A stretch of DNA of 64,000 nucleotides from a virus. Positions 12,676-43,711 of the stretch are shown here, one piece after another. Made by a program: the position numbers and the translations under genes. The stretch spans positions 5,560 through 69,559 of the IMG/VR virus record IMGVR_UViG_3300009545_000004. One strand, written 5' to 3'. The notes beneath the pieces are model-generated. The model was not told the origin of the DNA and made no database searches. It saw nothing but the letters and a program-made list of their open reading frames with translations. The first letter of the stretch is position 1, and each line of letters opens with the position of its first letter.

Positions 12676-13911
12676 ATGGCATCGATCCGCCGGACACCGA
12701 CAGGCAAGTGGGAAGTGAAGTTCACGAAGCAGGCCCTGTTTCCCAAGCCCATCTATTTCACGTTCGACGACGAAGAGACGGCCCGCAAGTACGGAGCTGA
12801 AGGCGACGCTCTACTCGCCAAGGACATCATCCCCACAGGCTGGGTAGCTGCTCCACTCGACACCAAAACGAAGCACGACACATTGGGGCCGATCATTCGG
12901 GCCTGGCTCAACAGTGGCCACGCCTCGGTATCGGATGACGAGGTGCTGAATCTCGTCTTCAGCGAGAAGGGTGTCACGCCGATGCGCGACATGAATTACA
13001 AGTGGTGCGAGGCTTGGGTGCGCGAAATGAAGGTCGACAAGAACCTGGCGCCGAGCACCATCCGCAAGCGCGTGGGTGCCGTCAGCCGCGCCTTCGGCTA
13101 CTGGGCCCGATCGTTCGAAGAAGTGGAGCCACCGGTGAACTGCTTGGCCCTGCTGCCTCGCGGCTACTCGACGTACACGAAGAAGGACATCGAGCTGGCC
13201 GAGGCCAACGGCAAGAAGGCCAGGCTCGACGAGGTGCGCGAGCGCCGCCTCAACGAAGGCGAGGAAGAGCGCATTCTGGAGACCCTCAACGGCGTCAAGC
13301 GGGCCGATCGCGAGCGCCCCTTCATCGACCCGTCCGACAAGTCGATGCTGAACCTCTACCTCATGATCGTGAACACCGGCGCGCGTCTCATCGAGGCCTA
13401 TACGTTGACCCGCGGGCAGATTGATCTTGCGCAGAGATTCATCCGCATCAAAACCTCGAAGCTGAAGCCAGGCAAACCTCAAGAATGGCGTCACGTGCCC
13501 ATTCGGGCCGAGTTATATGACCCGCTGGTGGCCTGGCTGGAGGCGAGAAATCTGAGCGACGAGAAGTCGATGGCGAAGGCCCTCGTCTTCCCATTTTGGG
13601 ACGGACATCCCGATGATTTGACGCCGGCCGGGAAACGCCTCTCGCAGCGTTTTCGGAAGGCATTCGACTACTCGAACATGCCCGACTTCACTGAGCACGA
13701 CTTGCGCCATGAGGCAACGTGCAGGTGGTTTCAGATGCGATTCGAAGACGGGAGCTGGGTATACCGCGGCGAGGAAATCAACAAGCTGATGGGCTGGAAA
13801 CCGAACTCGACGATGGCGCAGCGCTATGCGTCATTCCAAGCTGAAGAACTCGCGGCGCGGCTGTGGAAGGGTGTTCCCGCCGGCAACCTCAAGCTCGTGC
13901 CAAAGGGCTAG
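12676..13911 (+). CDS. int: Tyrosine integrase
   Basis: NTGAR, HDLRH, LMGW, QRY catalytic motifs; adjacent to attP. Confidence 0.95.
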   Translation: MASIRRTPTGKWEVKFTKQALFPKPIYFTFDDEETARKYGAEGDALLAKDIIPTGWVAAPLDTKTKHDTLGPIIRAWLNSGHASVSDDEVLNLVFSEKGVTPMRDMNYKWCEAWVREMKVDKNLAPSTIRKRVGAVSRAFGYWARSFEEVEPPVNCLALLPRGYSTYTKKDIELAEANGKKARLDEVRERRLNEGEEERILETLNGVKRADRERPFIDPSDKSMLNLYLMIVNTGARLIEAYTLTRGQIDLAQRFIRIKTSKLKPGKPQEWRHVPIRAELYDPLVAWLEARNLSDEKSMAKALVFPFWDGHPDDLTPAGKRLSQRFRKAFDYSNMPDFTEHDLRHEATCRWFQMRFEDGSWVYRGEEINKLMGWKPNSTMAQRYASFQAEELAARLWKGVPAGNLKLVPKG

Positions 13912-23200: not shown

Positions 23201-24328
23201 ATGGCTGAACCGCAAGGGGCATTGGGTGACAGCATGAAGGCCGACACTGAGCCGCCCAGCAAGGGCAAGGCCCCGAGCCGCTATCGCAAGGTGGAGGTGC
23301 GCACCTGGGGTGACGAGAAATTCCGCAGGCTCTCCGCGCTGCCGCCGTCCGGGAAAGGCTTGTGGCTGTACCTGATCACCGGCCCGCACACCGGCCCGAT
23401 ACCCGGGCTCTTTCGGGCCAGCCGCGCCGCGATGGCCGAAGAGCTGGGATGGACGACGGAACAGTTCGGGGAACGGTTTGCGGAACTGTTTCGAGAGGGT
23501 ATGGCAACGGCCGATTTCGAGGCCCGCGTGATGTGGATTCCGCAGGCCATCAAGCACAACCGGCCGGACAACCCGAACGTCGTCAAGAGCTGGGCCGCGG
23601 AGTTCGACTTGATCCCCGAGAGCGCCCTCAAGGTGGAAGCCTGGAATGCCCTGAGAGCCAGTGTTTACGCGCTTGGTGAGCAATTCGGCAAGGCGTTCGA
23701 CGACAGTTTGCCGAACCCTTCGTTCAACGGTTCGACGAACGGTTCGGCAAACGGTTTCGGCAACGGTAGGCCAAACCAGGAACAGCAACAGCAACAGCAA
23801 CCCAAAGAACAGGCGCCGTTGGCGCCCGTATCGTCCGCTGACGCGGACTCGTCATCGGCTACGCCGACGACCGATCCGCCGACCGAAGACTTGGAAAGCG
23901 GACAGCCTCAACTCCCGTCGATACCTCCATCGCAGAGGGTCAAAGCCAAGAAGCCGCGCGCGACGCCAACCATCCCGTGTCCCTACGCCGCGATCTACGG
24001 TGCGTATCACGAGCTGCTGCCCGATCTGCCGCGCGTGCGCCTCATGGACAACGACCGGCGCCACGCGGCGATGCGCAAGGTGTGGGGCTGGGTGCTGTCG
24101 AGCAAGAAGACTGACGGCACGCCCCGCGCGAGCAACGCCGACGAGGGCATCCAGTGGTTCCGTGAGTTCTTCGAGCGCGCCTCGCACAACGATTTCCTGA
24201 TGGGCCGCACCAAGCGACCCGAGTCGCACGCCAACTGGTTCTGCGACTTCGATTTCCTGCTGACCGATCGCGGCATCAAGCACGTGATCGAGCGCACCGA
24301 CCCCCACCCGAGAGGACACGCAGCATGA
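23201..24328 (+). CDS. Phage replication initiator
   Basis: N-terminal WGDEKFRRLS..LWLYL..GLF, internal iterons, C-terminal DFDFLL; precedes DnaB. Confidence 0.8.
   Translation: MAEPQGALGDSMKADTEPPSKGKAPSRYRKVEVRTWGDEKFRRLSALPPSGKGLWLYLITGPHTGPIPGLFRASRAAMAEELGWTTEQFGERFAELFREGMATADFEARVMWIPQAIKHNRPDNPNVVKSWAAEFDLIPESALKVEAWNALRASVYALGEQFGKAFDDSLPNPSFNGSTNGSANGFGNGRPNQEQQQQQQPKEQAPLAPVSSADADSSSATPTTDPPTEDLESGQPQLPSIPPSQRVKAKKPRATPTIPCPYAAIYGAYHELLPDLPRVRLMDNDRRHAAMRKVWGWVLSSKKTDGTPRASNADEGIQWFREFFERASHNDFLMGRTKRPESHANWFCDFDFLLTDRGIKHVIERTDPHPRGHAA
23702..23767 (+). repeat. Iteron-like AACGGTT(C)G repeats, putative origin
   Basis: 12-bp periodic repeats; related copies at ~23459-23493. Confidence 0.6.
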
Positions 24329-27349: not shown

Positions 27350-28593
27350 ATGAAACGTACCCTCGCAACCATCATCGTCATGCTCGTCGCGGTGTCGGCC
27401 CAGGCCGGCGACCTGGAGGCCGTCAAGGCCGCGAACGCGCAGATTGCCGCCGCGAAGGCGGCCAAGAAAGAAGCGCTCAAGGGGCTGACGAGGCTCCAGC
27501 GCGCCGAACTTCGTGTCGCCGAAGCCAACGCTGCCTTGCTCAAGGCGCGCGAAGCCGAGGCCAAGAAGGAGGAGTGACATGCACACGCTCAAGCTGATCG
27601 CATCGAAGAGCTTCACCAGCATGCTCTACGAGCAAGGTTCCTGGGGCGCGCGCCGGCTGGGCATGACGGAAAGCTCGATGGATCTGTTCCAGGTCGACGG
27701 CGACGACACCCGATTGGAAATCGAGTGGGACATCCCCGCGGCGATGGACTGCGAGCACATCGGGCTGACCGTCGAAACGCACGAAGGCCGGCGCACCCTG
27801 GTCGACTTCGACGGCGTGATGGACCTGCCCGCGCAGGCAGTCGACATGCTCGAAGCCCAGGGCATCGTCGTCGACGACGAGTTCAAGGAGTAAGCCATGC
27901 TTGACGACGAAGAGCTGGCCTGGCTCGCCTTCGCTCGCGATCGGCGCGACGCGGGCGACCCGGAGCCGATCCCACGGCCCGAGGTGTTCGAGCTGCGCAT
28001 GTGCCCCGAGTGCAACGGCACCGGCGTCGAAGTCTTCAGCCTCGAAGAACGCTGCGAGCGTTGCCAGGGCCGAGGCGAAGCATGACGGACGCCGAACACC
28101 TCATCGCGTGTGTGCAGCAGGCCAAGGACTCCGGGCTCGCCTGGTGCCCGGTCTTCATCGACGTGCGCGACGCCGAGGGCAACAAGCACGGGCACCTCGC
28201 CTCGGACGGCTACACGCACAGCGTGTGGCGCTTCTATCCGGCGTGGCCGGGCCGCCGCGTGCTGATGACCGACGTGCGCCTCTTCGGCCGAGCCGAAATC
28301 AGCCCGGCCGAACTGCTGCCCAAGTGGGCGCTGCCCGCGACCTTCGACAACTGGCGCGTCGGCCTCCCGGAAGGCGGCGCGCCCTGAGCCTCCGGTTCAA
28401 CCCATCCCCGTTCCCATCCCCATTACCTCACCGTCGAACCATGAAGACCATCATCACCATCGCCGCGCTCTCCTTCGCCTTCGCCTTCGCGTCGCTCGCT
28501 CAGGCCAAAGGCCACGCCAAGGGCGGCTTGCAAGGCACCACGCACACCGGCCACGCCTTCCCGAGCAAGGGACCGAAGGCGGGCGGCAAGTAG
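27350..28593 (+). other. Operon of five small ORFs (27350-27577, 27579-27893, 27897-28085 zinc-finger, 28082-28387, 28441-28593)
   Basis: RBSs and coupling; first and last have signal-peptide-like N-termini; AT-rich promoter with CTACTCCACT at 27320. Confidence 0.65.
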
Positions 28594-28619: not shown

Positions 28620-28648
28620 AAAAAAAGGCCCCCCTCGCGGGGCCTTTT
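28620..28648. terminator. Bidirectional terminator
   Basis: A-run, GGCCCC/GGGGCC stem, T-run, between convergent operons. Confidence 0.8.
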
Positions 28649-28884: not shown

Positions 28885-28909
28885 AAAAAAGGCCCCGCGA
28901 GGGGCCTTT
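28885..28909 (-). terminator. Intrinsic terminator
   Basis: AAAAAAGGCCCC-gcga-GGGGCCTTT. Confidence 0.75.
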
Positions 28910-28926
28910 GTCGTTCCTGGGCCTGG

Positions 28927-33455: not shown

Positions 33456-33774
33456 GAAATCCGCTCGTGGTTGGTGGAGCCTTTATTGTGCAACCTTAAT
33501 TCTCTTCTACTCCACTCTAGTGACGTAAAAAAGACCAATTTGTGAGCGCATGTTGCGCTCTGCAGATGGATCGGCCAAAGGGTGTAGGCTGTCTATGCCA
33601 AAGGGGTCGTTGTTGGGACTCTGAGGCAGTTGTCGTCATTGCCGCTGGTCGCTCAATCCCCCACTCAGCCACCAGTCTTCCAGCGGGTCGGCAGTCGTCC
33701 GCCGCTGGTTCTTACGGCACTCGTGTCGCACTGGCGTGCGCAACAGGCAGTGCCGCGCATAGGCTGCTGTGTCC

Positions 33775-34563
33775 ATGGCAGCGACGAATCGAAGACAGGT
33801 AGGCCGACCACGGCTGGAGCCGATTACAGCCCCAGGCAACGCCGATCGCATGGCATCCATAGAGCGCGACGTGCGTGCTGGCGTCCTCACGACTCGTGAG
33901 ATCGCGAGGCGCTACGGGTGCTCGCACACGTCGGTGATGAACTGGAAGGCCAAGTACGGATGGCACCAGGATCTGAATGCGCGGATCCGAGAGAGGGCGG
34001 ACCGAATCGTCGCGAGGGCCGCGCTTTTTTCGCCCCACGAGGGATTGCGTGATTCGGACGACTTGGCAATGGTGCTTGCGAACGGCTCGATGCTGGCGAG
34101 CGTGCGCTTGGAGCACCACAAGGCGATTGCGAAGCTGCGGCGCATGGCGGTGTCGCTGATGCACGAGCTGGACGCCACGCAGGAGCATCCCGAGGCGGTG
34201 GCGATGGTGTACGACGCCTTGAGCCTGCGCGATGGCAGGACCGAGGAGGCGCTGCTCGAAGCTGCCAAGCTGGTAGCCAGCATCCCGCAGCGCTCGCTCG
34301 TGCTGAAGACTCTGAGCGAGACGATGCGCAACATCGTGGGCATGGAGCGCGAGGCCTTCGGGCTCGACACCAGCAACGGCACAGACGGTCGACCGACCGT
34401 GATCATCCGGGACTTCACCGGCCGAGGCGATCCCGACTCGCCACGCGCCAGGGAGCAACGACCCGAGCCCGACGTGCCCGTAGCACAAGAGGTGAGCGCC
34501 GCCGAGCCCGAACCCGAGGCGAGCGTCGACCCCGAGGTACAAGAGTCGAGTGTCGAACCATGA
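33775..34563 (+). CDS. terS: Terminase small subunit (putative)
   Basis: HTH REIARRYGCSHTSV..W..KYGW; first late gene. Confidence 0.7.
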   Translation: MAATNRRQVGRPRLEPITAPGNADRMASIERDVRAGVLTTREIARRYGCSHTSVMNWKAKYGWHQDLNARIRERADRIVARAALFSPHEGLRDSDDLAMVLANGSMLASVRLEHHKAIAKLRRMAVSLMHELDATQEHPEAVAMVYDALSLRDGRTEEALLEAAKLVASIPQRSLVLKTLSETMRNIVGMEREAFGLDTSNGTDGRPTVIIRDFTGRGDPDSPRAREQRPEPDVPVAQEVSAAEPEPEASVDPEVQESSVEP

Positions 34564-35097: not shown

Positions 35098-36588
35098 ATG
35101 CTCACCGAAGGCCAGCGCGTCGAGTACAGCTACAAGCCGCAGGGGCCGGTGCTCGCGAAGTACCTCGCGAACCGCGATCAGCGGGCCTTCATCTGCGGCC
35201 CGCTCGGCTCTTCGAAGACCAACGCCTCGTGCTGGAAGGCGTTTCGCGTCATGTGCGACCAAAAGCCCGATCGCGAGGGCATTCGGCGCACGCGCCTGGT
35301 CGCGATCCGCAACACCTACGGCGACTTGCTCTCGACGACGGCGAAGGACTGGCTGGAGATGTTCGAGCCGCTCGGCCGCTGGGTCGCGGGAGGCCGCGAG
35401 CCGCCGCAGCACACGCTCGACTTCTTCCTGCCACCCGAGAAGCCCGGCGACAAGCCGACGCGCGTGCTGTCCGAGCTGATCTTCCTTGCGCTCGATCGCG
35501 AAGAGCATGTGCGCAAGCTCCGCGGCATGCAGCTCACCGCGGCGATGCTGTCCGAGGCCAAGGAGCTGCCGTTCGCGGTGCTGCAGATGGTCGACTTGCG
35601 CATCGGCCGCTACCCGCAGGGCGAAATCGAGCCGACCTGGTACGGCATCTTCGGCGACACGAACGCGCCCGACACCGATCACTGGTACTACCGGCTCGCC
35701 GAAGAGCGCCGGCCCGAGGGGTGGACCTTCTTCAAGCAGCCCGGCGGCCTGATCCGCGAGTCGCGCGAGGCGCCGTGGCGCGAGAACCCGGACGCCGAGA
35801 ACCTGCGCAACCTGCCGCCCGGCTACTACGTCAAGGGCGCGCAGGGCAAGGACGAGGACTGGATTCTCGTCAATCTCGCCAACGAGTACGGCTTCGTCGC
35901 GGACGGCAAACCGGTCTATCCGGACTATCGCGACTCGGTGATGTGCAAGCCCTTCGAGCTGGTGAAGGAGGTGGGCATCTACGTCGGACTCGACTTCGGA
36001 CTGACGCCCGCGGCGCTCATCGGACAGCAGGGATTCACCGGCCAATGGCGCTTCCGCCACGAGCTGGTGACCGAGAGCACTGGCATCCTGCGCTTCGCCG
36101 ACGAGCTGAACCTCTTCATGGCGCGCCACTACCAGGGCTGGCCGATCCTCGGCATCTTCGGCGACCCGGCCGGCGGCCAGCGCCAGGCCGGCGACGTGGA
36201 CGAGCGCACGACGTTCCAGCTCCTCGGCCACAAGGGCATCTACGCGACTCCGGCGCCCGGGAACAACGACTTCGTGCTGCGCGCCGAGGCCTTCAGCGCG
36301 CCGATGAAGCGGTTCATCGACGGCGAGCCCGGCATGCTGATCCATCCGGACTGCCGCGTGACCCGCAAGGGCCTGCAGGGCGGCTACGCCTACAAGCGCA
36401 TCAAGGTCGCCAACTCCGATAGGTGGCGCGATCTGCCCGACAAGAACCAGTATTCGCACCCCTGCGAAGCCGGCCAGTACCTGGTGCTCGGCGCCGGCGA
36501 GGGGGTGACGGTGCTGACCAGCACGACAAACACGCGCGACCGGGACATCGACGGCTTTCGCCGCCGCATGGGTTACGCGACTCACTGA
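35098..36588 (+). CDS. terL: Terminase large subunit
   Basis: ICGPLGSSKT, LSEAKE, GDTNAP, GLDFGLTP, GDPAG, SHPCEAGQY. Confidence 0.92.
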   Translation: MLTEGQRVEYSYKPQGPVLAKYLANRDQRAFICGPLGSSKTNASCWKAFRVMCDQKPDREGIRRTRLVAIRNTYGDLLSTTAKDWLEMFEPLGRWVAGGREPPQHTLDFFLPPEKPGDKPTRVLSELIFLALDREEHVRKLRGMQLTAAMLSEAKELPFAVLQMVDLRIGRYPQGEIEPTWYGIFGDTNAPDTDHWYYRLAEERRPEGWTFFKQPGGLIRESREAPWRENPDAENLRNLPPGYYVKGAQGKDEDWILVNLANEYGFVADGKPVYPDYRDSVMCKPFELVKEVGIYVGLDFGLTPAALIGQQGFTGQWRFRHELVTESTGILRFADELNLFMARHYQGWPILGIFGDPAGGQRQAGDVDERTTFQLLGHKGIYATPAPGNNDFVLRAEAFSAPMKRFIDGEPGMLIHPDCRVTRKGLQGGYAYKRIKVANSDRWRDLPDKNQYSHPCEAGQYLVLGAGEGVTVLTSTTNTRDRDIDGFRRRMGYATH

Positions 36589-36596
36589 GGTCTGCC

Positions 36597-38843
36597 ATGG
36601 CCAAAATGCTTATTCCATCGAACGTGAGCACCATCACGCCGATCAAGGACGACACGCCCGCCTCGTCGCGCGGCATGGACGAGGCGGGCGCAGGCGCCTT
36701 CAACCTCACGCGGCTGATGGCCCTGGTGTCGGACTGCGAAGACCAGCCGAATTGGCGCGAGCGCGCCGACCTGGCCGCCGCCTATGTCGACGGCAAGCAG
36801 TTCACGCCCGAGCAGATGGACACCGCGCGCAAGGAAGGCCTCGGCGAGGTGCGGCCGACTAACCTGATCGGCCGTGTGATCCGCTCGGTGTGCGGCACCG
36901 AGGCGAAGACGCGCACCGACGTGAAGATCGAATCGGACGACGACGACATCGAGGACGTGTCCGACGTGCTCAACCTGCGCATGAAGGAGGCGCAGCGCGA
37001 GACGTATGCCGACATGGCGGTCTCGAACGCCTATTTCGGCCAGGCGACGACCGGCATCGGCTGGGTGGAGGTCGCGCGCAACGCCGATCCGCTCGACTAC
37101 CCGTACCGGGTGAAAGACATCCATCGCTCCGAGATGTGGTGGGACTGGAAAGACCCGGACTTGGTGCTGCGCGGCGCGCGCTGGGTCGCGCGCAAGCGCT
37201 GGGGCGATCTGGACGAACTCGAAGCCGCGATGCCGCGCTTCAAGGAGCTGTTTCGCATGATGGCCAACGGCTGGAGCGGCTTCATGTGGGACAACACCCT
37301 CGACGAGACGATGATCCAGCAGTACGACGCCGACCAGAGGTATCGCAACTACCGCGGCCGGGCCGAGTGGATCGACGGCGCGAGGAAGCGCGTCAAGCTC
37401 TACGAGATTTGGTACAAGATTCCGGCCGACGCGCTGGTCATCAGCTTCTCGCCGACGCGCCGCATGCTGCTCGATCAGCGCAACCCGGCGCACATGCTCG
37501 CTATCAGCCAGGGCCGCGCCATGGTGAGCCGCTCGATCACGCGCCAGGTGCGCATGGCGCTCTTCGCCGGGCCGCATCGGCTGGTCGACATTGGCACGAA
37601 GCGGCGCAATTTCCCCTACGTGCCGTTCTTCGCCTACCGCGACGACGCCGACCAGTCGCCCTATGGACTGGTGGAGGGCATGATCGGCCCGCAGGACGGC
37701 TACAACAAGCGCCGCCTGCGCATCGAGTGGATGCTGAAGGCACGCCAGATCCAGGTCGACAACGACGCGCTCGACACGAAGGCCAACTCCCTCGCCGAGA
37801 TTGCCGACGCGGTGATGCGGCCCGACTTGACGATCGTGCTCGACGCGAACCGAAAGAATCGCGACGGCATCAAGATCGGCGCCGACTTGCAGCTTCAGAA
37901 GGAGCAGATCGACGTGATGCAGGATGACAAGCAGCTCATCCAGGACGTGCCGGGCGTCTACGGCTCGCAGCTCGGCCAGGCCGCCTCGGGCGTCACCTCT
38001 GGTATCGCGAACTCGCTGCTGATCGAACAGGGCGCGGTCGCGATGGGCGACCTGAACGACAACTACCGGCACTCGCGCCGCATGGTGTTCGAGAACCTGC
38101 TCGACTTGATCGTCGAAGACTGGTCGATGCCGAACATGCAGGCCAAGATCGGCCGCGGCAGCTCGCGCCGCGTGGTGACGCTCAACACGATCGATCCGCA
38201 GACCGGCGACATGGTGAACAACGTGGCGGACGCGCCGATGCGCGTCGGCCTCGGCGACGTGCCGAACACGCCCAGCTACCGCATGCAGCAGCAGCAGAAC
38301 ATCGCGACCATCGTGCAGGCGCTCGCGCAGGCCTCGCCGCAGGCCGCCGCGGTGCTCGCGCCGAGCTTCATCGAGCAGACCGACTTGCCCGATCGCATGG
38401 AGCGCGCCGACGACGTGCGCCACGCCCTCGGCCTGCCGACTTCCGGCGACCGCGCGCAGCAGAAGCAGCAGCAGGCAGTCGCCGAGCAACAGGCGCAGGA
38501 AAAAGCCGCGATGGACAAGCAGGCCGCGATGCAGCAGCTCGAAGCGCAGGCTGCGAACATCGAGAAGACGCGCAGCGACACCGAGCTGAACAAGGCCAAG
38601 GTGATCCAGCTCGGCCACGGCATGGCGACCGACTCGATCGCGACCGCCGACAGCGGGTTGCAGGGCCACGCGCAGACTGCCGTCGCGGCGCAGCAGGCTA
38701 ACGCGCTGGCGGCGCAGCAGGCCGCCGACGAGGCCGATCGCTCGATCATCGATGCGCAGAACAAGATGATCGCGGACGCCTTGAACGAGGCCAAGGCGCG
38801 CGGCGTGGCACCCGCCCCCGCGCCTGTTTTCGCTCAGGCGTGA
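36597..38843 (+). CDS. Portal protein (podovirus type)
   Basis: YVDGKQF, PTNLIGRVI, FPYVPF, PYGLV..MIGPQDGYNKR; follows terL. Confidence 0.9.
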   Translation: MAKMLIPSNVSTITPIKDDTPASSRGMDEAGAGAFNLTRLMALVSDCEDQPNWRERADLAAAYVDGKQFTPEQMDTARKEGLGEVRPTNLIGRVIRSVCGTEAKTRTDVKIESDDDDIEDVSDVLNLRMKEAQRETYADMAVSNAYFGQATTGIGWVEVARNADPLDYPYRVKDIHRSEMWWDWKDPDLVLRGARWVARKRWGDLDELEAAMPRFKELFRMMANGWSGFMWDNTLDETMIQQYDADQRYRNYRGRAEWIDGARKRVKLYEIWYKIPADALVISFSPTRRMLLDQRNPAHMLAISQGRAMVSRSITRQVRMALFAGPHRLVDIGTKRRNFPYVPFFAYRDDADQSPYGLVEGMIGPQDGYNKRRLRIEWMLKARQIQVDNDALDTKANSLAEIADAVMRPDLTIVLDANRKNRDGIKIGADLQLQKEQIDVMQDDKQLIQDVPGVYGSQLGQAASGVTSGIANSLLIEQGAVAMGDLNDNYRHSRRMVFENLLDLIVEDWSMPNMQAKIGRGSSRRVVTLNTIDPQTGDMVNNVADAPMRVGLGDVPNTPSYRMQQQQNIATIVQALAQASPQAAAVLAPSFIEQTDLPDRMERADDVRHALGLPTSGDRAQQKQQQAVAEQQAQEKAAMDKQAAMQQLEAQAANIEKTRSDTELNKAKVIQLGHGMATDSIATADSGLQGHAQTAVAAQQANALAAQQAADEADRSIIDAQNKMIADALNEAKARGVAPAPAPVFAQA

Positions 38844-38905
38844 GCAAGCAGGCATGAACGCGCCGCCGGACACGTCTTCGCTGCCGTTCCGCTTTTTGCG
38901 GCGCC

Positions 38906-39134
38906 GAAAAGACACGAGCCCCGCACAGAGGAGGGTGTGCGGGGCTCGGCTCCCATGCGTTTGGCCGCGATTCATCGGCCTTCGTGCCCCTTCGGCGGTC
39001 CCCCTACGCTGGGTGAAGGGCAAGTACACCGTCAAGCACGACGGCGGGCACGCGGACACCCGCATTGTGCCTCGGCGGCGGGGGCGTAATCTCCTACGCG
39101 GGCCTTCATCGACGCGCAGAACCGGATGATCGCC
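38906..39134 (-). ncRNA. Element B, copy 1: putative sRNA with anti-SD-loop terminator, plus portal 3'-end copy
   Basis: Diverged repeat of 39715-39948 with covarying hairpin. Confidence 0.5.
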
Positions 39135-39289
39135 AAGTCGTTTGGCAGGTCCCTTCGCAAGGCGACATCGCCAGCCGCATACTTTCAGGCGACCGACGGC
39201 GACCGTAGTGCGGGCTGACTCATCGGCAGGGCGACTTCAGGCGGTTCAGCTCTGGGCCGTGAGCGAGAAACCCGAAGTCTGCCCCAGCC

Positions 39290-39526
39290 GGTCTGGGGCT
39301 GCCGTGCGACCTCGAGATCGGGCGGCAGTCGATCTTCATGGTCAACGGGTTCGCGGGGCAGCTCCTGAAGCTCGACCAGAACGGCAAGGTGATTGCGGTG
39401 CTCGGCAAGCCCGGGGCTGCGCTCGGCGAGTTCGGCGAAGCGCACATGGTGGCCGTGAGTCCGAAGGGCGACGTCTACGTGGCCGACACCGTGAACGCAA
39501 CGCTGACGAAGTTCGTCGCGAAATAG
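39290..39526 (+). pseudogene. 3' fragment of a bacterial NHL-repeat beta-propeller gene
   Basis: GKPG...GEFGEAHMVAVSPKGDVYVADTVN. Confidence 0.7.
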
Positions 39527-39584
39527 CGAGAGCGTTAGACGACGAACCGGCGCGCGAGCTTCGACGCGGTGGTGCTGGACACGA

Positions 39585-39690
39585 CTTGGCTCAGGGGCGA
39601 ACTCCGCGACGCGATGCACGCCATCCTGCGCGGCGGCGCCGGGCACAACCTGCTGATCCGAGCGCACCTGAGGGTGCATCTGTTGGTCCT
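39585..39690 (+). pseudogene. C-terminal fragment of an IS5-family transposase
   Basis: WLRGELRDAMHAIL..GAGHNL.IRAHLRV resembles the IS5 Tnp C-terminus. Confidence 0.55.
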
Positions 39691-39714
39691 TTTCGGTAGG
39701 CCATTGCTGTGCCT

Positions 39715-39948
39715 GAAAGGCACGGGCCCCAGCACGGAGGAGGTTCGTGCGGGGCCCGGCCCCGTCGTGCGGCCTGCCGCTACGAGTCAGCAGACCTTCG
39801 TGCTCCTTCGGCGGTCCCCTTACGACGGGAGAGGGGCAAGTGCACCGTGGTGATCCAACCCCGGCGAGCACGCAGACAGCATCCATTGTGCGTTGGCGGG
39901 GATGCAATTCTGCTACTCGGGCCGTCATCGCGCCAGAACCTGGTGATC
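39715..39948 (-). ncRNA. Element B, copy 2
   Basis: Diverged repeat of 38906-39134. Confidence 0.5.
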
Positions 39949-40149
39949 CTCCGGCGTAGGTGGGCATCCGCGTGGCGATGTCGCTGATTCCGCCCTTGGC
40001 AGATGGCAGAGTGAAGAAGATGGCAAGCGCCGTCTCGCAAGCTACATACAGCCTGTATACAGCCTGTATAAAACTCTGCCTGTACGGTTCTCCATCACAG
40101 AGTCAAATCGTGTAGAATTGCGCCATGATCACAGTCAGGAGCGACTTCC

Positions 40150-40626
40150 ATGAGCACAAGAATTACCGTTGGCGGAGTCGTGATAGAGCTGGACTCCGTG
40201 GCATATCTTGGCGAGGCGATGAAGCAACTTGCTCCATACTTGTCGTTGCCAACTGTGGCCCGCGCGACAGAGGCTGCACCGGCACCGGCACCAGCACCAG
40301 CACCAGCACCTGCACCTGCACCCGCTGAGTCGACCAGGCAGAGCGCACTGAAACTCTTGCGCCTTCTGCGAGATTACCGCGCATCCGGCGGCGCACGGTC
40401 CGAAGAAGTAATGAAAGTCCTTGGCGCAGCGCACGCTAAGGGCATCGGCTCAAAAATGACACCGGTTAACGCCTACCTCCAGCTTCTGGATTTTGAAGTG
40501 GCAGAGGTCTACAAGAACGACAGGGATGCCACTGGAAACAGGATGTGGATCCCGGGCGAGAGGTTTGACGAAGCGCTACAAAAGATCTCCGATTCGAGAG
40601 CCGAAGACATTGGCGATCTTCTTTGA
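40150..40626 (+). CDS. Moron gene, hypothetical with (PA)n linker
   Basis: Own -10 TAGAAT and AGGAG RBS; lower GC. Confidence 0.7.
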   Translation: MSTRITVGGVVIELDSVAYLGEAMKQLAPYLSLPTVARATEAAPAPAPAPAPAPAPAPAESTRQSALKLLRLLRDYRASGGARSEEVMKVLGAAHAKGIGSKMTPVNAYLQLLDFEVAEVYKNDRDATGNRMWIPGERFDEALQKISDSRAEDIGDLL

Positions 40627-42412: not shown

Positions 42413-43711
42413 ATGTCAGTGACCACCGTTGCAAGCGGCGCAGGAATCGCCGTCAAGCAGTACAGCAAGGCCCTGTCGGCAATGGCCGTGCGCCAGCCGA
42501 CCCCGCTCAAGTCCCTCATGGGCCCGATGCCCAGCGAGGACGCCGCGCTGCGCAAGCTGCGGCAGCAGAGCACCATCGAAATGCCCGTCGTGCGTGTCGA
42601 CGAGCTGTCGAAAGGCCCGGGTGACACCGTGCAAGTCGACTGCGCACACGTGGTGAAGCTGCGCCCGATCATGGGCGACCAGAACGCCGAAGGCAAAGGC
42701 GCTGCGCTGAAGTACAGCTCGCAGGACATCAAGATCGACATGGCGACGCTCCCGGTGTCGGCTGGCGGCAAGATGACTCAGCAGCGAACGAGCCACTCGA
42801 TGCGCCAGAACGCCCTGATGCAGCTCAAGGGCGGCATGCCGCGCTTTCGGTGGCAGCGGGCGCTCGCGATGTTGGCGGGCGCCCGCGGCGTGCAGGACGG
42901 CACCGACTGGATCCTTCCGCTCGCGACCGACCCCGAGTTCGCCGAGATGATGATCAACAGCGTCAAGGCACCCACCTACAACCGCCACTGGGTGGTGTCG
43001 GGCGCGAGCCTGGTGCAGGGCGGCCAGCAGCTCGGCGCGATCGTCTCGACGGACACGATGAAGCTCGGCGTGATCGACGAGTTCGCGGCCATCTGGGCCG
43101 AGATGAGCACGCGCATGGCGCCCGTCTCGATCCCGGGCGACCCGGCGGCCGGCGATGACCCGATCAAGGGCATCCTGTTCGTCGACGAACTGGTGTGGAA
43201 CGACCTGGTGACCGACACCAGTGCCACCAACCTGCGCACGTTCGAGACGAACGCGATGAAGCGGGCCAACTACGGCGACCTGAAGAGCCATCCGCTCTTC
43301 TCGGGCGAGCCGATCATGTGGCGCAACATCCTGGTCCGCAAGATGAGCACCGCCGTGCGCTTCAACGCGAGCGACAGCGTGAACATCGTGACCGCGGCCA
43401 ACCGGCTGACGGGCACCGAGAGCGCGCAAGTGGTCAACGCGGCCATCACCGCGAACTACCAGGTGTCGCGCATGCTGTTCCTGGGCGCCCAGGCGCTCGC
43501 CTCGGCGTCGGGCGCGAACCAGACGAGCGAAGAGACGTACTCGCTGCTGGAGCACCGCACGAACTTCGACCGCAACCTGGAGTTCGCGGGCGAAATCATC
43601 GGCTCGGAGCAAAAGCTGCGGTGGTCGCTGCCGAACTTCAACGGCGACCTGGAGCCCACCGACTTCGGCGTGGCCGTGATCGACACCGTGGTGCGCAAAC
43701 GCATCGTCTGA
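42413..43711 (+). CDS. Major capsid protein, N4-gp56/DUF4043 type
   Basis: ELSKGPGDTV, PIMGD..AEGKG, GGKMTQQRT, HPLFSGE..MWRNILVRK. Confidence 0.9.
   Translation: MSVTTVASGAGIAVKQYSKALSAMAVRQPTPLKSLMGPMPSEDAALRKLRQQSTIEMPVVRVDELSKGPGDTVQVDCAHVVKLRPIMGDQNAEGKGAALKYSSQDIKIDMATLPVSAGGKMTQQRTSHSMRQNALMQLKGGMPRFRWQRALAMLAGARGVQDGTDWILPLATDPEFAEMMINSVKAPTYNRHWVVSGASLVQGGQQLGAIVSTDTMKLGVIDEFAAIWAEMSTRMAPVSIPGDPAAGDDPIKGILFVDELVWNDLVTDTSATNLRTFETNAMKRANYGDLKSHPLFSGEPIMWRNILVRKMSTAVRFNASDSVNIVTAANRLTGTESAQVVNAAITANYQVSRMLFLGAQALASASGANQTSEETYSLLEHRTNFDRNLEFAGEIIGSEQKLRWSLPNFNGDLEPTDFGVAVIDTVVRKRIV

Follow-up and report, generated by a model that had tools for sequence, protein, structure and literature searches.

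A diverged pair of non-coding units with CCUCCUC-loop hairpins, candidate leftward small RNAs, behind the portal gene of a temperate phage

The DNA considered here is a 64,000-nucleotide (nt) stretch of a viral genome, bases 5560-69559 of the 69,559-base virus record IMGVR_UViG_3300009545_000004; we refer to the whole stretch as the window and give all positions in its numbering. The record is rated complete and has direct terminal repeats. About 1.3 kb of non-coding DNA separates the portal gene from the next gene, and inside it are two diverged copies of a unit, each with a GC-rich hairpin, together with host-gene debris (Table 1). An earlier reading made from the letters alone, here called the sequence-only reading, had taken the two copies for small RNA (sRNA)-like elements antisense to the late operon. 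The operon label is a fair one; the units sit between plus-strand portal and head genes.

Table 1. Features of the two units, of the DNA between and around them, and of the phage modules mentioned in the text (window coordinates)
Feature	Position	Strand	Description
Hairpin 1	38915-38948		13-bp perfect GC-rich stem, 10 G-C pairs; plus-strand loop GAGGAGGG
Hairpin 1 with T-run	38905-38948	-	Minus-strand loop CCCTCCTC (38928-38935), then TGTCTTTTCG
Body, copy 1	38949-39105	-	Central block 38979-39032, core 38979-39003, C/U-rich stretch 39011-39024, CACAAT 39064-39069
Hairpin 2	39723-39758		13 bp plus one bulged base; plus-strand loop GAGGAGGTT
Hairpin 2 with weak T-run	39713-39758	-	Minus-strand loop AACCTCCTC (39737-39745), then TGCCTTTCAG
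Body, copy 2	39759-39924	-	Central block 39795-39848, core 39795-39819, CACAAT 39885-39890
Portal core	38746-38773	+	28-mer internal to the portal gene, 70 nt ahead of the stop codon; encodes part of IIDAQNKMIA
core'	39106-39133	+	25/28 identical to portal core; right end of unit 1
core''	39925-39948	+	More decayed, two 1-nt gaps; right end of unit 2
Spacer	39134-39294	.	Frame from core' open to a stop at ~39216
NHL-repeat gene, 3' end	39295-39536	+	Pfam NHL, E 4.5e-5, above cut-off; host-like debris
DDE transposase, C-terminal fragment	39569-39700	+	Insertion sequence debris; blastn match in genome G160, 75% over 85 nt, E 3.3e-8
Small terminase, terS	33769-34563	+	
Large terminase, terL	35098-36588	+	Weak match
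P22-type portal open reading frame	36423-38843	+	Pfam P22_portal, 7e-84
Major head protein	42413-43711	+	
Tyrosine integrase	13246-13839		

The copies, at ~38900-39150 and ~39712-39965, align over ~250 nt, with 189 of 259 ungapped columns identical (73%), and their bodies reach a local alignment score of 59 against each other, compared with 9.7 ± 1.4 in 300 shuffles (z = 34). In the full 69.6-kb virus record there are these two copies and no more. While the units keep 73% identity, the sequences that flank them are unrelated to each other. The best-kept parts are the central block, with 46 of 53 columns identical, and the hairpin, with 31 of 35; the rest of the body is 61 to 72% identical. On the minus strand both copies contain the 25-nt core GGGGACCGCCGAAGGRGCACGAAGG, at 38979-39003 and 39795-39819.

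The stem of hairpin 1 is one of 56 stems of at least 10 base pairs (bp) in the window, and only three of these are longer. The stems of the two hairpins differ by two double changes, each from an A-T to a G-C pair (GAGC/GCTC versus GGGC/GCCC, and ACA/TGT versus ACG/CGT), and none of the 13 pairs is altered on one side alone. The hairpin also has a 3-bp outer extension, in which one more pair has changed on both sides, making a third double change. When drift was simulated from the copy 1 stem at 15 to 27% per site, ~0.1% of 400,000 runs kept the 13 pairs and acquired at least two double changes. Since simulated drift yields this combination only about once in a thousand runs, the comparison of the two copies indicates that the hairpin is kept by selection for pairing. 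The compensatory changes are compatible with either strand.

Both hairpins have a T-run on their minus side and none on their plus side. In copy 1 the tail TGTCTTTTCG was scored as terminator-like on the minus strand, so that a GC-rich stem-loop and a T-run are found together, and hairpin 1 resembles an intrinsic terminator that would stop leftward transcription. Upstream of the two hairpins there is no protein gene that points leftward. In the loops of both copies the heptamer CCUCCUC is exposed and is complementary to Shine-Dalgarno (SD) sequences, with which it is predicted to pair; the phage genes use SDs of the AGGAG, GAGGA, and GGAGG types, one instance being AAGGAGGAG ahead of the SD-strong gene that begins at 27579. 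Scanning the whole window gave no further hairpin with a GGAGG or CCTCC loop within either unit. The sequence features quoted in the sequence-only reading are all present, and its observation holds overall: both double changes that it named are there, with zero pair-breaking changes, as are the minus-strand loop heptamer CCTCCTC and the shared core in each copy. It had described two diverged copies of ~230 nt; diverged copies they are, with a size nearer 250 nt.

Several other stems of the window deserve mention in their own right. The longest, at 23706-23752, has 18 pairs (the scan permits at most one mismatch) and an 11-nt loop, with GGTTCG-type repeats nearby, and could be an origin or operator-like structure. 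Two near-identical canonical hairpins of the AAAAGGCCCC ... GGGGCCTTTT type, at 28623-28648 and 28886-28911 and thus 263 nt apart, exemplify the ordinary terminators of the phage; the first of them is flanked by A- and T-runs on both sides and looks bidirectional.

The comparison between copies also speaks to coding potential. The gaps in the alignment have lengths of 6, 2, 2, 1, 4, 4, 2, 1, 1, and 2 nt, no synonymous excess is seen between the two copies in any frame on either strand, and the six-frame translations are rich in Arg, Pro, and Gly and include no hydrophobic peptide. Protein coding was rejected because no frame is conserved, and by these measures the units are non-coding. A type I toxin-antitoxin locus was considered as well; no frame conserved between the copies and no hydrophobic peptide was found. 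On the plus strand the loop reads GAGGAGG and is followed a few nucleotides on, at the homologous place in both copies, by a GTG from which the frames stay open for 50 and 70 codons. These GTG-started open reading frames (ORFs) were dismissed as a gene, since they part after ~35 codons and show no synonymous excess. A protein search with a 91-residue plus-frame ORF, used as a route to homologous DNA, returned three candidates, none of which scored.

The GAGGAGG loop, itself a strong SD, opens a different explanation of the hairpin, namely that it is a plus-strand cis element of the late mRNA, acting as a standby or decoy site, a processing site, a stabiliser, or the ribosome-binding site of the small GTG ORF (38937-39089 in copy 1 and 39747-39959 in copy 2). 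The GC-rich hairpin folds equally well on that strand (z = -6.28), the A-T to G-C compensatory changes suit both strands, and the GTG stands just after the loop SD in both copies with an open frame behind it. The remainder of the unit fits such an element poorly. The T-run is on the opposite strand, the two ORFs lose their common frame after ~35 codons with no synonymous excess, and their Arg/Pro/Gly-rich peptides have no homologue (the protein search having used the different, 91-residue frame). The body, moreover, is without a plus-strand fold signal: taken without the hairpin, its consensus fold has z scores of -2.25 and -2.89 on the minus strand, reached by 5 and 2 of 300 column shuffles, but of -0.85 and -1.60 on the plus strand, reached by 63 and 20 of 300. 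We regard a plus-strand element as quite unlikely. Because the T-run is on the minus side and the fold signal of the body is present on the minus strand and absent on the plus strand, the minus strand is the better candidate for an RNA. Folded as a single sequence, copy 1 has a z score of -3.42, matched by 0 of 200 shuffles.

The right end of each unit carries a feature beyond what the sequence-only reading described, a copy of 28 nt of the portal gene (portal core, core', and core'' in Table 1). For core', a second match with at most three mismatches arose in 0 of 100 shuffles of the window, and its score of 22 was reached by 0 of 2000 local shuffles; the score of core'', 12, was reached by 1 of 2000. 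The 28-nt similarity is sharply bounded, and both flanks are unrelated. The sequences downstream of the cores are unrelated, portal positions 38450-38745 compared with body 1 and body 2 give z scores of 1.5 and 0.4, and blastx of 38844-40120 against 120 portal homologues found similarity in the core region only (E = 0.043). With such z scores, and with the blastx match confined to the core region, the idea that the body is a decayed duplicate of the portal was rejected. The reading frame that runs on from core' into the spacer may be what is left of an alternative 3' end of the portal gene, now decayed; the similarity here is not significant (z = -0.8), being that same blastx value and carried by the core. 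A CRISPR (clustered regularly interspaced short palindromic repeats) mini-array around the 28-mer was considered by eye and dropped, Rfam being silent and the 28-mer being without flanking repeats.

So sharply bounded a repeat, with unrelated flanks, could mark the entry of a miniature integrative cassette of ~360 nt, made up of a replacement portal 3' end, spacer, hairpin, body, and core, which would have inserted site-specifically at the 28-nt core in the manner of 3'-end-targeting elements and been mobilised in trans by a recombinase. The portal keeps an intact 3' end at the left, core' is followed by what may be an old one, and a tyrosine integrase is among the phage's genes. The idea is compatible with the sRNA reading set out below. 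We nonetheless consider it very unlikely, given that the similarity of the putative old 3' end is not significant and that no free or differently placed copy appeared in the collections searched. Downstream of the portal, a direct repeat of the locus's own portal 3' end was found in 0 of 32 related loci, two of which (L027 and L030) have short inverted matches, and no contig of three DNA runs joins across a unit. The portal core was searched for in the window, without a located attP of the phage to set it against, and gave no further match with up to three mismatches.

The DNA between the two units is partly gene debris. The fragment of an NHL-repeat gene (~240 nt) was compared with soil metatranscriptome contigs and showed 0 differences over 115 nt with one and 7 over 143 nt with another, after which the contigs diverge on both sides; the 115-nt identity to a contig that continues into unlike sequence suggests a recent capture from a host-like genome. 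In BLASTP the transposase fragment is identical at 21 of 40 residues to the C-terminus of a 489-residue ORF with a Pfam DUF772 transposase domain. The region as a whole is identical (0 differences) in contigs of three further DNA runs (X2, X4, and X5), two of them from 2025, so there were no variants to use. In the DNA runs, extra depth from other organisms falls on both host-like fragments and not on the units. Two low-depth contigs (X2 and X4) join 38308-38311 to 39206 and 39873, with 20 to 28 foreign letters between; they are probably contigs of other organisms placed, at 80% likeness, on the alanine/glutamine-rich tail of the portal.

The phage is temperate, as its tyrosine integrase indicates, and its head module is P22-type. 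It is abundant in rhizosphere and root samples, and rhizosphere, root, and soil metagenomes contain it and its kin. Related portals are carried by Burkholderiales genomes, i.e., Piscinibacter sakaiensis, two Rhodoferax metagenome-assembled genomes (MAGs), and one betaproteobacterial MAG. As called here, the portal ORF has 806 codons and overlaps the large terminase ORF; because the identical protein on record has 748 residues (P0002), the true portal start is probably near 36597. In the closest relatives examined, the portal stop and the next gene overlap (L003) or are separated by ~25 nt (L004) or ~190 nt of non-coding DNA (L005). The distance from portal to capsid is 3.57 kb here versus 1.13 to 1.4 kb in most of 27 measured relatives, with L003 at 3.59 kb. 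The spot between portal and capsid genes is thus variable, and in this phage ~38844-40100 is additional DNA without coding content. The elements of the spacer between the portal and the next gene were found in none of the relatives searched, and when the DNA that follows the portal was scanned for analogous hairpins at 32 related loci, one weak 8-bp hairpin was the sole match.

Farther along the same interval, the small genes at 40150, 40730, 40941, and 41428 have no tblastn match at an E of 1e-4 among 30 related viral loci (L003-L032), and the interval evolves fast or is accessory. Within a lower-GC stretch (39950-40150), where the GC content drops from ~0.67 to 0.55, the palindrome ATACAGCCTGTAT occurs at 40046-40069 as an overlapping pair, ~80 nt ahead of the 40150 gene. 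The sigma-70 promoter scan scored none at this site, which looks like an operator or other regulatory site within the head operon.

Searches for relatives of the units were made in collections of which the large ones were scanned by exact patterns only, and the genome sets were samples. At the gathering threshold, Rfam 15 gave 0 matches in the 64-kb window, and at E values up to 10 it gave, for 38500-40300, only three hits of 12 to 14 bits against thresholds of 42 to 45. The sequence-only reading had named an existing Rfam match as grounds for giving it up; no such match was found, and therefore that objection does not apply. Among candidates weighed by eye, a glycine-riboswitch-like CCGAAGG motif and a group II intron 5' end were dropped, with Rfam silent; an IscB/TnpB guide RNA and an IS110 bridge RNA were likewise considered and dropped, with Rfam silent and the neighbouring transposase of the DDE type.

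No homologue was found by blastn in 50,697 GenBank phage records, no further copy of the exact core motif in viral, genome, or metagenome contigs, and no homologue by the hairpin-loop pattern in viral contigs. A two-anchor pattern drew six viral loci and at least 117 metagenome stretches, 80 of which were screened, and the best covariance-model score was 14.8 bits. Both copies were compared by blastn with 30 related viral loci, with a best E of 0.012, and model R1 was applied to 37 sources and to the complete records of 30 related viruses, with a match in 0 of 30. Burkholderiales genomes, 552 in all, gave no homologue either. In 401 genomes of the order of Piscinibacter (G001), blastn of 38844-40100 gave two hits, and these fall on the debris that separates the copies; among 151 genomes of the G001 family, model R1 gave six weak hits of 17 to 21 bits, of which the three viewed as alignments lack the hairpin and were judged to be chance. 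Three genomes with related prophages gave just chance matches of 30 to 40 nt. Only the two paralogues were comparable, and conservation with covariation across genomes was not found.

Our best reading, which we hold tentatively, is that the units are stacked leftward morons of the sRNA type, each ending in an intrinsic terminator. We arrive at leftward non-coding units because the hairpin is under selection and oriented against leftward transcription, because no leftward protein gene is present, and because ~160 nt of body can still be aligned. On the minus strand each cassette would comprise, in order, 28 nt antisense to the portal 3' end, a body of ~160 nt, the GC-rich hairpin with its CCUCCUC loop, and a short U-run. 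Each would be a short non-coding transcription unit of ~150 to 240 nt that ends at its own terminator, and recombination at the conserved 28-nt portal core would have stacked the two. Were the units transcribed, their RNA would be perfectly antisense to late read-through transcripts of the spacer, and the terminator loop would mimic the anti-SD of 16S rRNA and could occlude ribosome-binding sites of the AGGAG/GAGGA type. An RNA starting upstream of the 28-mer would also pair with the portal mRNA; the predicted duplex of the unit 1 28-mer RNA with this mRNA has -49 kcal/mol, where the 1% tail of random 28-mers lies at -28. Transcription, the 5' end, and any target are putative in this scheme, and we infer the anti-SD mechanism by analogy.

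A number of observations weigh against this reading. A sigma-70 consensus scan of 38500-40400 found no promoter-like site on either strand at the 9/12 threshold, and a relaxed scan gave best matches of only 7/12, at non-homologous places in the two copies. The CACAAT that the sequence-only reading had proposed as a -10-like box does occur in both copies on the minus strand, yet no convincing promoter goes with it: in the relaxed scan, a -35 partner (3/6, 15-nt spacing) accompanies it in copy 1 only. In the one RNA run with any part of the stretch (X24, from soil), three contigs cover 38681-38731 and 39295-39536, outside the units, and are strandless, which counts neither for nor against transcription. 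The U-rich tail, also part of the sequence-only reading, is clear in copy 1, where TGTCTTTTCG was scored, and weak in copy 2, where just 4 of 8 letters of TGCCTTTCAG are T and the scan did not score it as terminator-like; the stem is kept. Conservation of the loop heptamer taken alone is not improbable at such divergence (an estimate of ~0.1). The single-sequence fold of copy 2 has a z score of -1.61, matched by 9 of 200 shuffles. In the RNAalifold structure 5 of 43 pairs are doubly changed and every cell pairs, but 22 of 500 shuffles equal those double changes, and these two sequences are also the source of the predicted structure; for these two reasons the model does no more than suggest structure outside the hairpin. 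No third copy or homologue came from any collection searched. The units, finally, sit amid gene debris and carry a piece of the portal, and recombination scars would fit such a setting equally well.

This last point makes recombination debris the main rival of the sRNA reading. On that account the locus would hold scars left at the 28-nt portal island by recombination between related phages, with host fragments carried in, and the hairpins would be, now or until recently, plain terminators or insulators with no regulatory RNA. The units are bracketed by the portal core, present three times, with fragments of an NHL gene and of a transposase in between; the portal-to-capsid interval varies among relatives; and the scans gave neither promoter nor homologue, all of which are as debris would have it. 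Neutral junk, on the other hand, would not retain 13 stem pairs through two double changes, and the similarity to the portal stops sharply at 28 nt with no gradual decay, next to a body unrelated to portal sequence. A leftward terminator would have nothing evident to terminate if there were no leftward transcription, and the region is identical in four samples. We think debris a somewhat unlikely account of the locus.

Of the interpretation given in the sequence-only reading, its non-coding character, the selection on hairpin pairing, and the preference for the minus strand stand; the promoter box and the family are not supported. It had spoken of a phage sRNA family; the collections searched gave no third member, and what is at hand is two copies in one phage. 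Target prediction, which it had proposed as a check, took the form of duplex scans with the loop regions, and these returned trivial cis-antisense sites and no specific target. The locus is best called an orphan candidate. The hairpin is its one well-supported feature, and its association with repeated portal 3' ends is informative.

A bolder form of the sRNA reading can be imagined, in which an sRNA cassette colonises the 28-nt island of P22-type portal 3' ends and replaces the gene end there with one of its own. A 5' segment of the RNA, antisense to the portal core, would pair with portal mRNA of the same phage or of superinfecting related ones, and the anti-SD loop would damp translation of mRNAs with strong SDs, all in the service of phage-phage competition. 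We give this version very little chance of being right. Most known RNAs of the design with an anti-SD loop come from Gram-positives and alphaproteobacteria, and to our knowledge almost no phage sRNAs have been described for Burkholderiales-type phages. If transcribed, the units would thus be a phage-borne sibling pair of sRNAs with an anti-SD terminator loop in a betaproteobacterial (Burkholderiales-type) phage. The stacked portal 3' ends would furthermore give a concrete case of small units acquired at one spot of a head operon. Without transcription of the units, it would instead be a recombination hot spot of the usual kind that retains relics of terminators, a minor finding.

Among known systems, the LhrC sRNAs of Listeria monocytogenes offer one point of comparison. 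Copies LhrC1-5 are reportedly partly in tandem. As in LhrC1-5, the units are diverged copies with a C-rich motif in the terminator loop. LhrC displays that motif in the loops of its hairpins, the terminator among them, and there it was shown to bind the G-rich SD region of a target mRNA; the LhrC RNAs are chromosomal, ~100 nt long, and from a low-GC Gram-positive, with three UCCC sites and with proven expression and targets (PMC4132741). The units here differ in being phage-borne, with one CCUCCUC loop per copy and no sequence similarity to LhrC, and their RNA is putative.

A closer likeness of loops is found in the alphaproteobacteria. Cuckoo RNAs are described as two to four adjacent hairpins, each with the 9-mer CCUCCUCCC, in a preserved gene context (PMC4615179). 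As in Cuckoo, RSs0680 (CcsR), and alpha-r14 (RF02344), a CCUCCUC-type anti-SD loop is fixed while the stems vary by compensatory changes, and there are several copies per genome. Unlike Cuckoo and RF02344, each unit here has a single hairpin, with loops CCCUCCUC and AACCUCCUC that agree in 7 of 9 letters, and a long unrelated body, and it lies in a phage head module with Burkholderiales-related portals rather than in an alphaproteobacterial genome. Membership in Cuckoo or RF02344 was rejected, given the one hairpin, the 7 of 9 letters, the phage context, and the lack of a model hit.

Prophage-encoded anti-sRNAs have reportedly been found in E. coli. The Pas sRNAs of the same species are prophage-borne and vary in copy number (bioRxiv 10.64898/2026.05.13.724894). 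The Pas sRNAs and, reportedly, the anti-sRNAs were experimentally detected, with known partners and in enterobacterial hosts, unlike the units here, for which no kinship to them in sequence or structure is expected. The likeness comprises carriage by temperate phages, copy number that varies by repeated acquisition, fast divergence, and narrow lineages.

Phage morons and phage antisense RNAs provide the last comparison. Morons of the classical kind come with a promoter that can be recognised and, in most cases, with a gene for a protein, and lambda oop and P22 sar are phage antisense RNAs that overlap defined target genes. Unlike a moron, the units gave a negative promoter scan, and unlike oop and sar, the plus-strand sequence that they overlap is non-coding spacer. 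Like morons, oop, and sar, each would be a self-contained unit with its own terminator, set between late genes in the opposed orientation, whose RNA would be antisense to phage mRNA.

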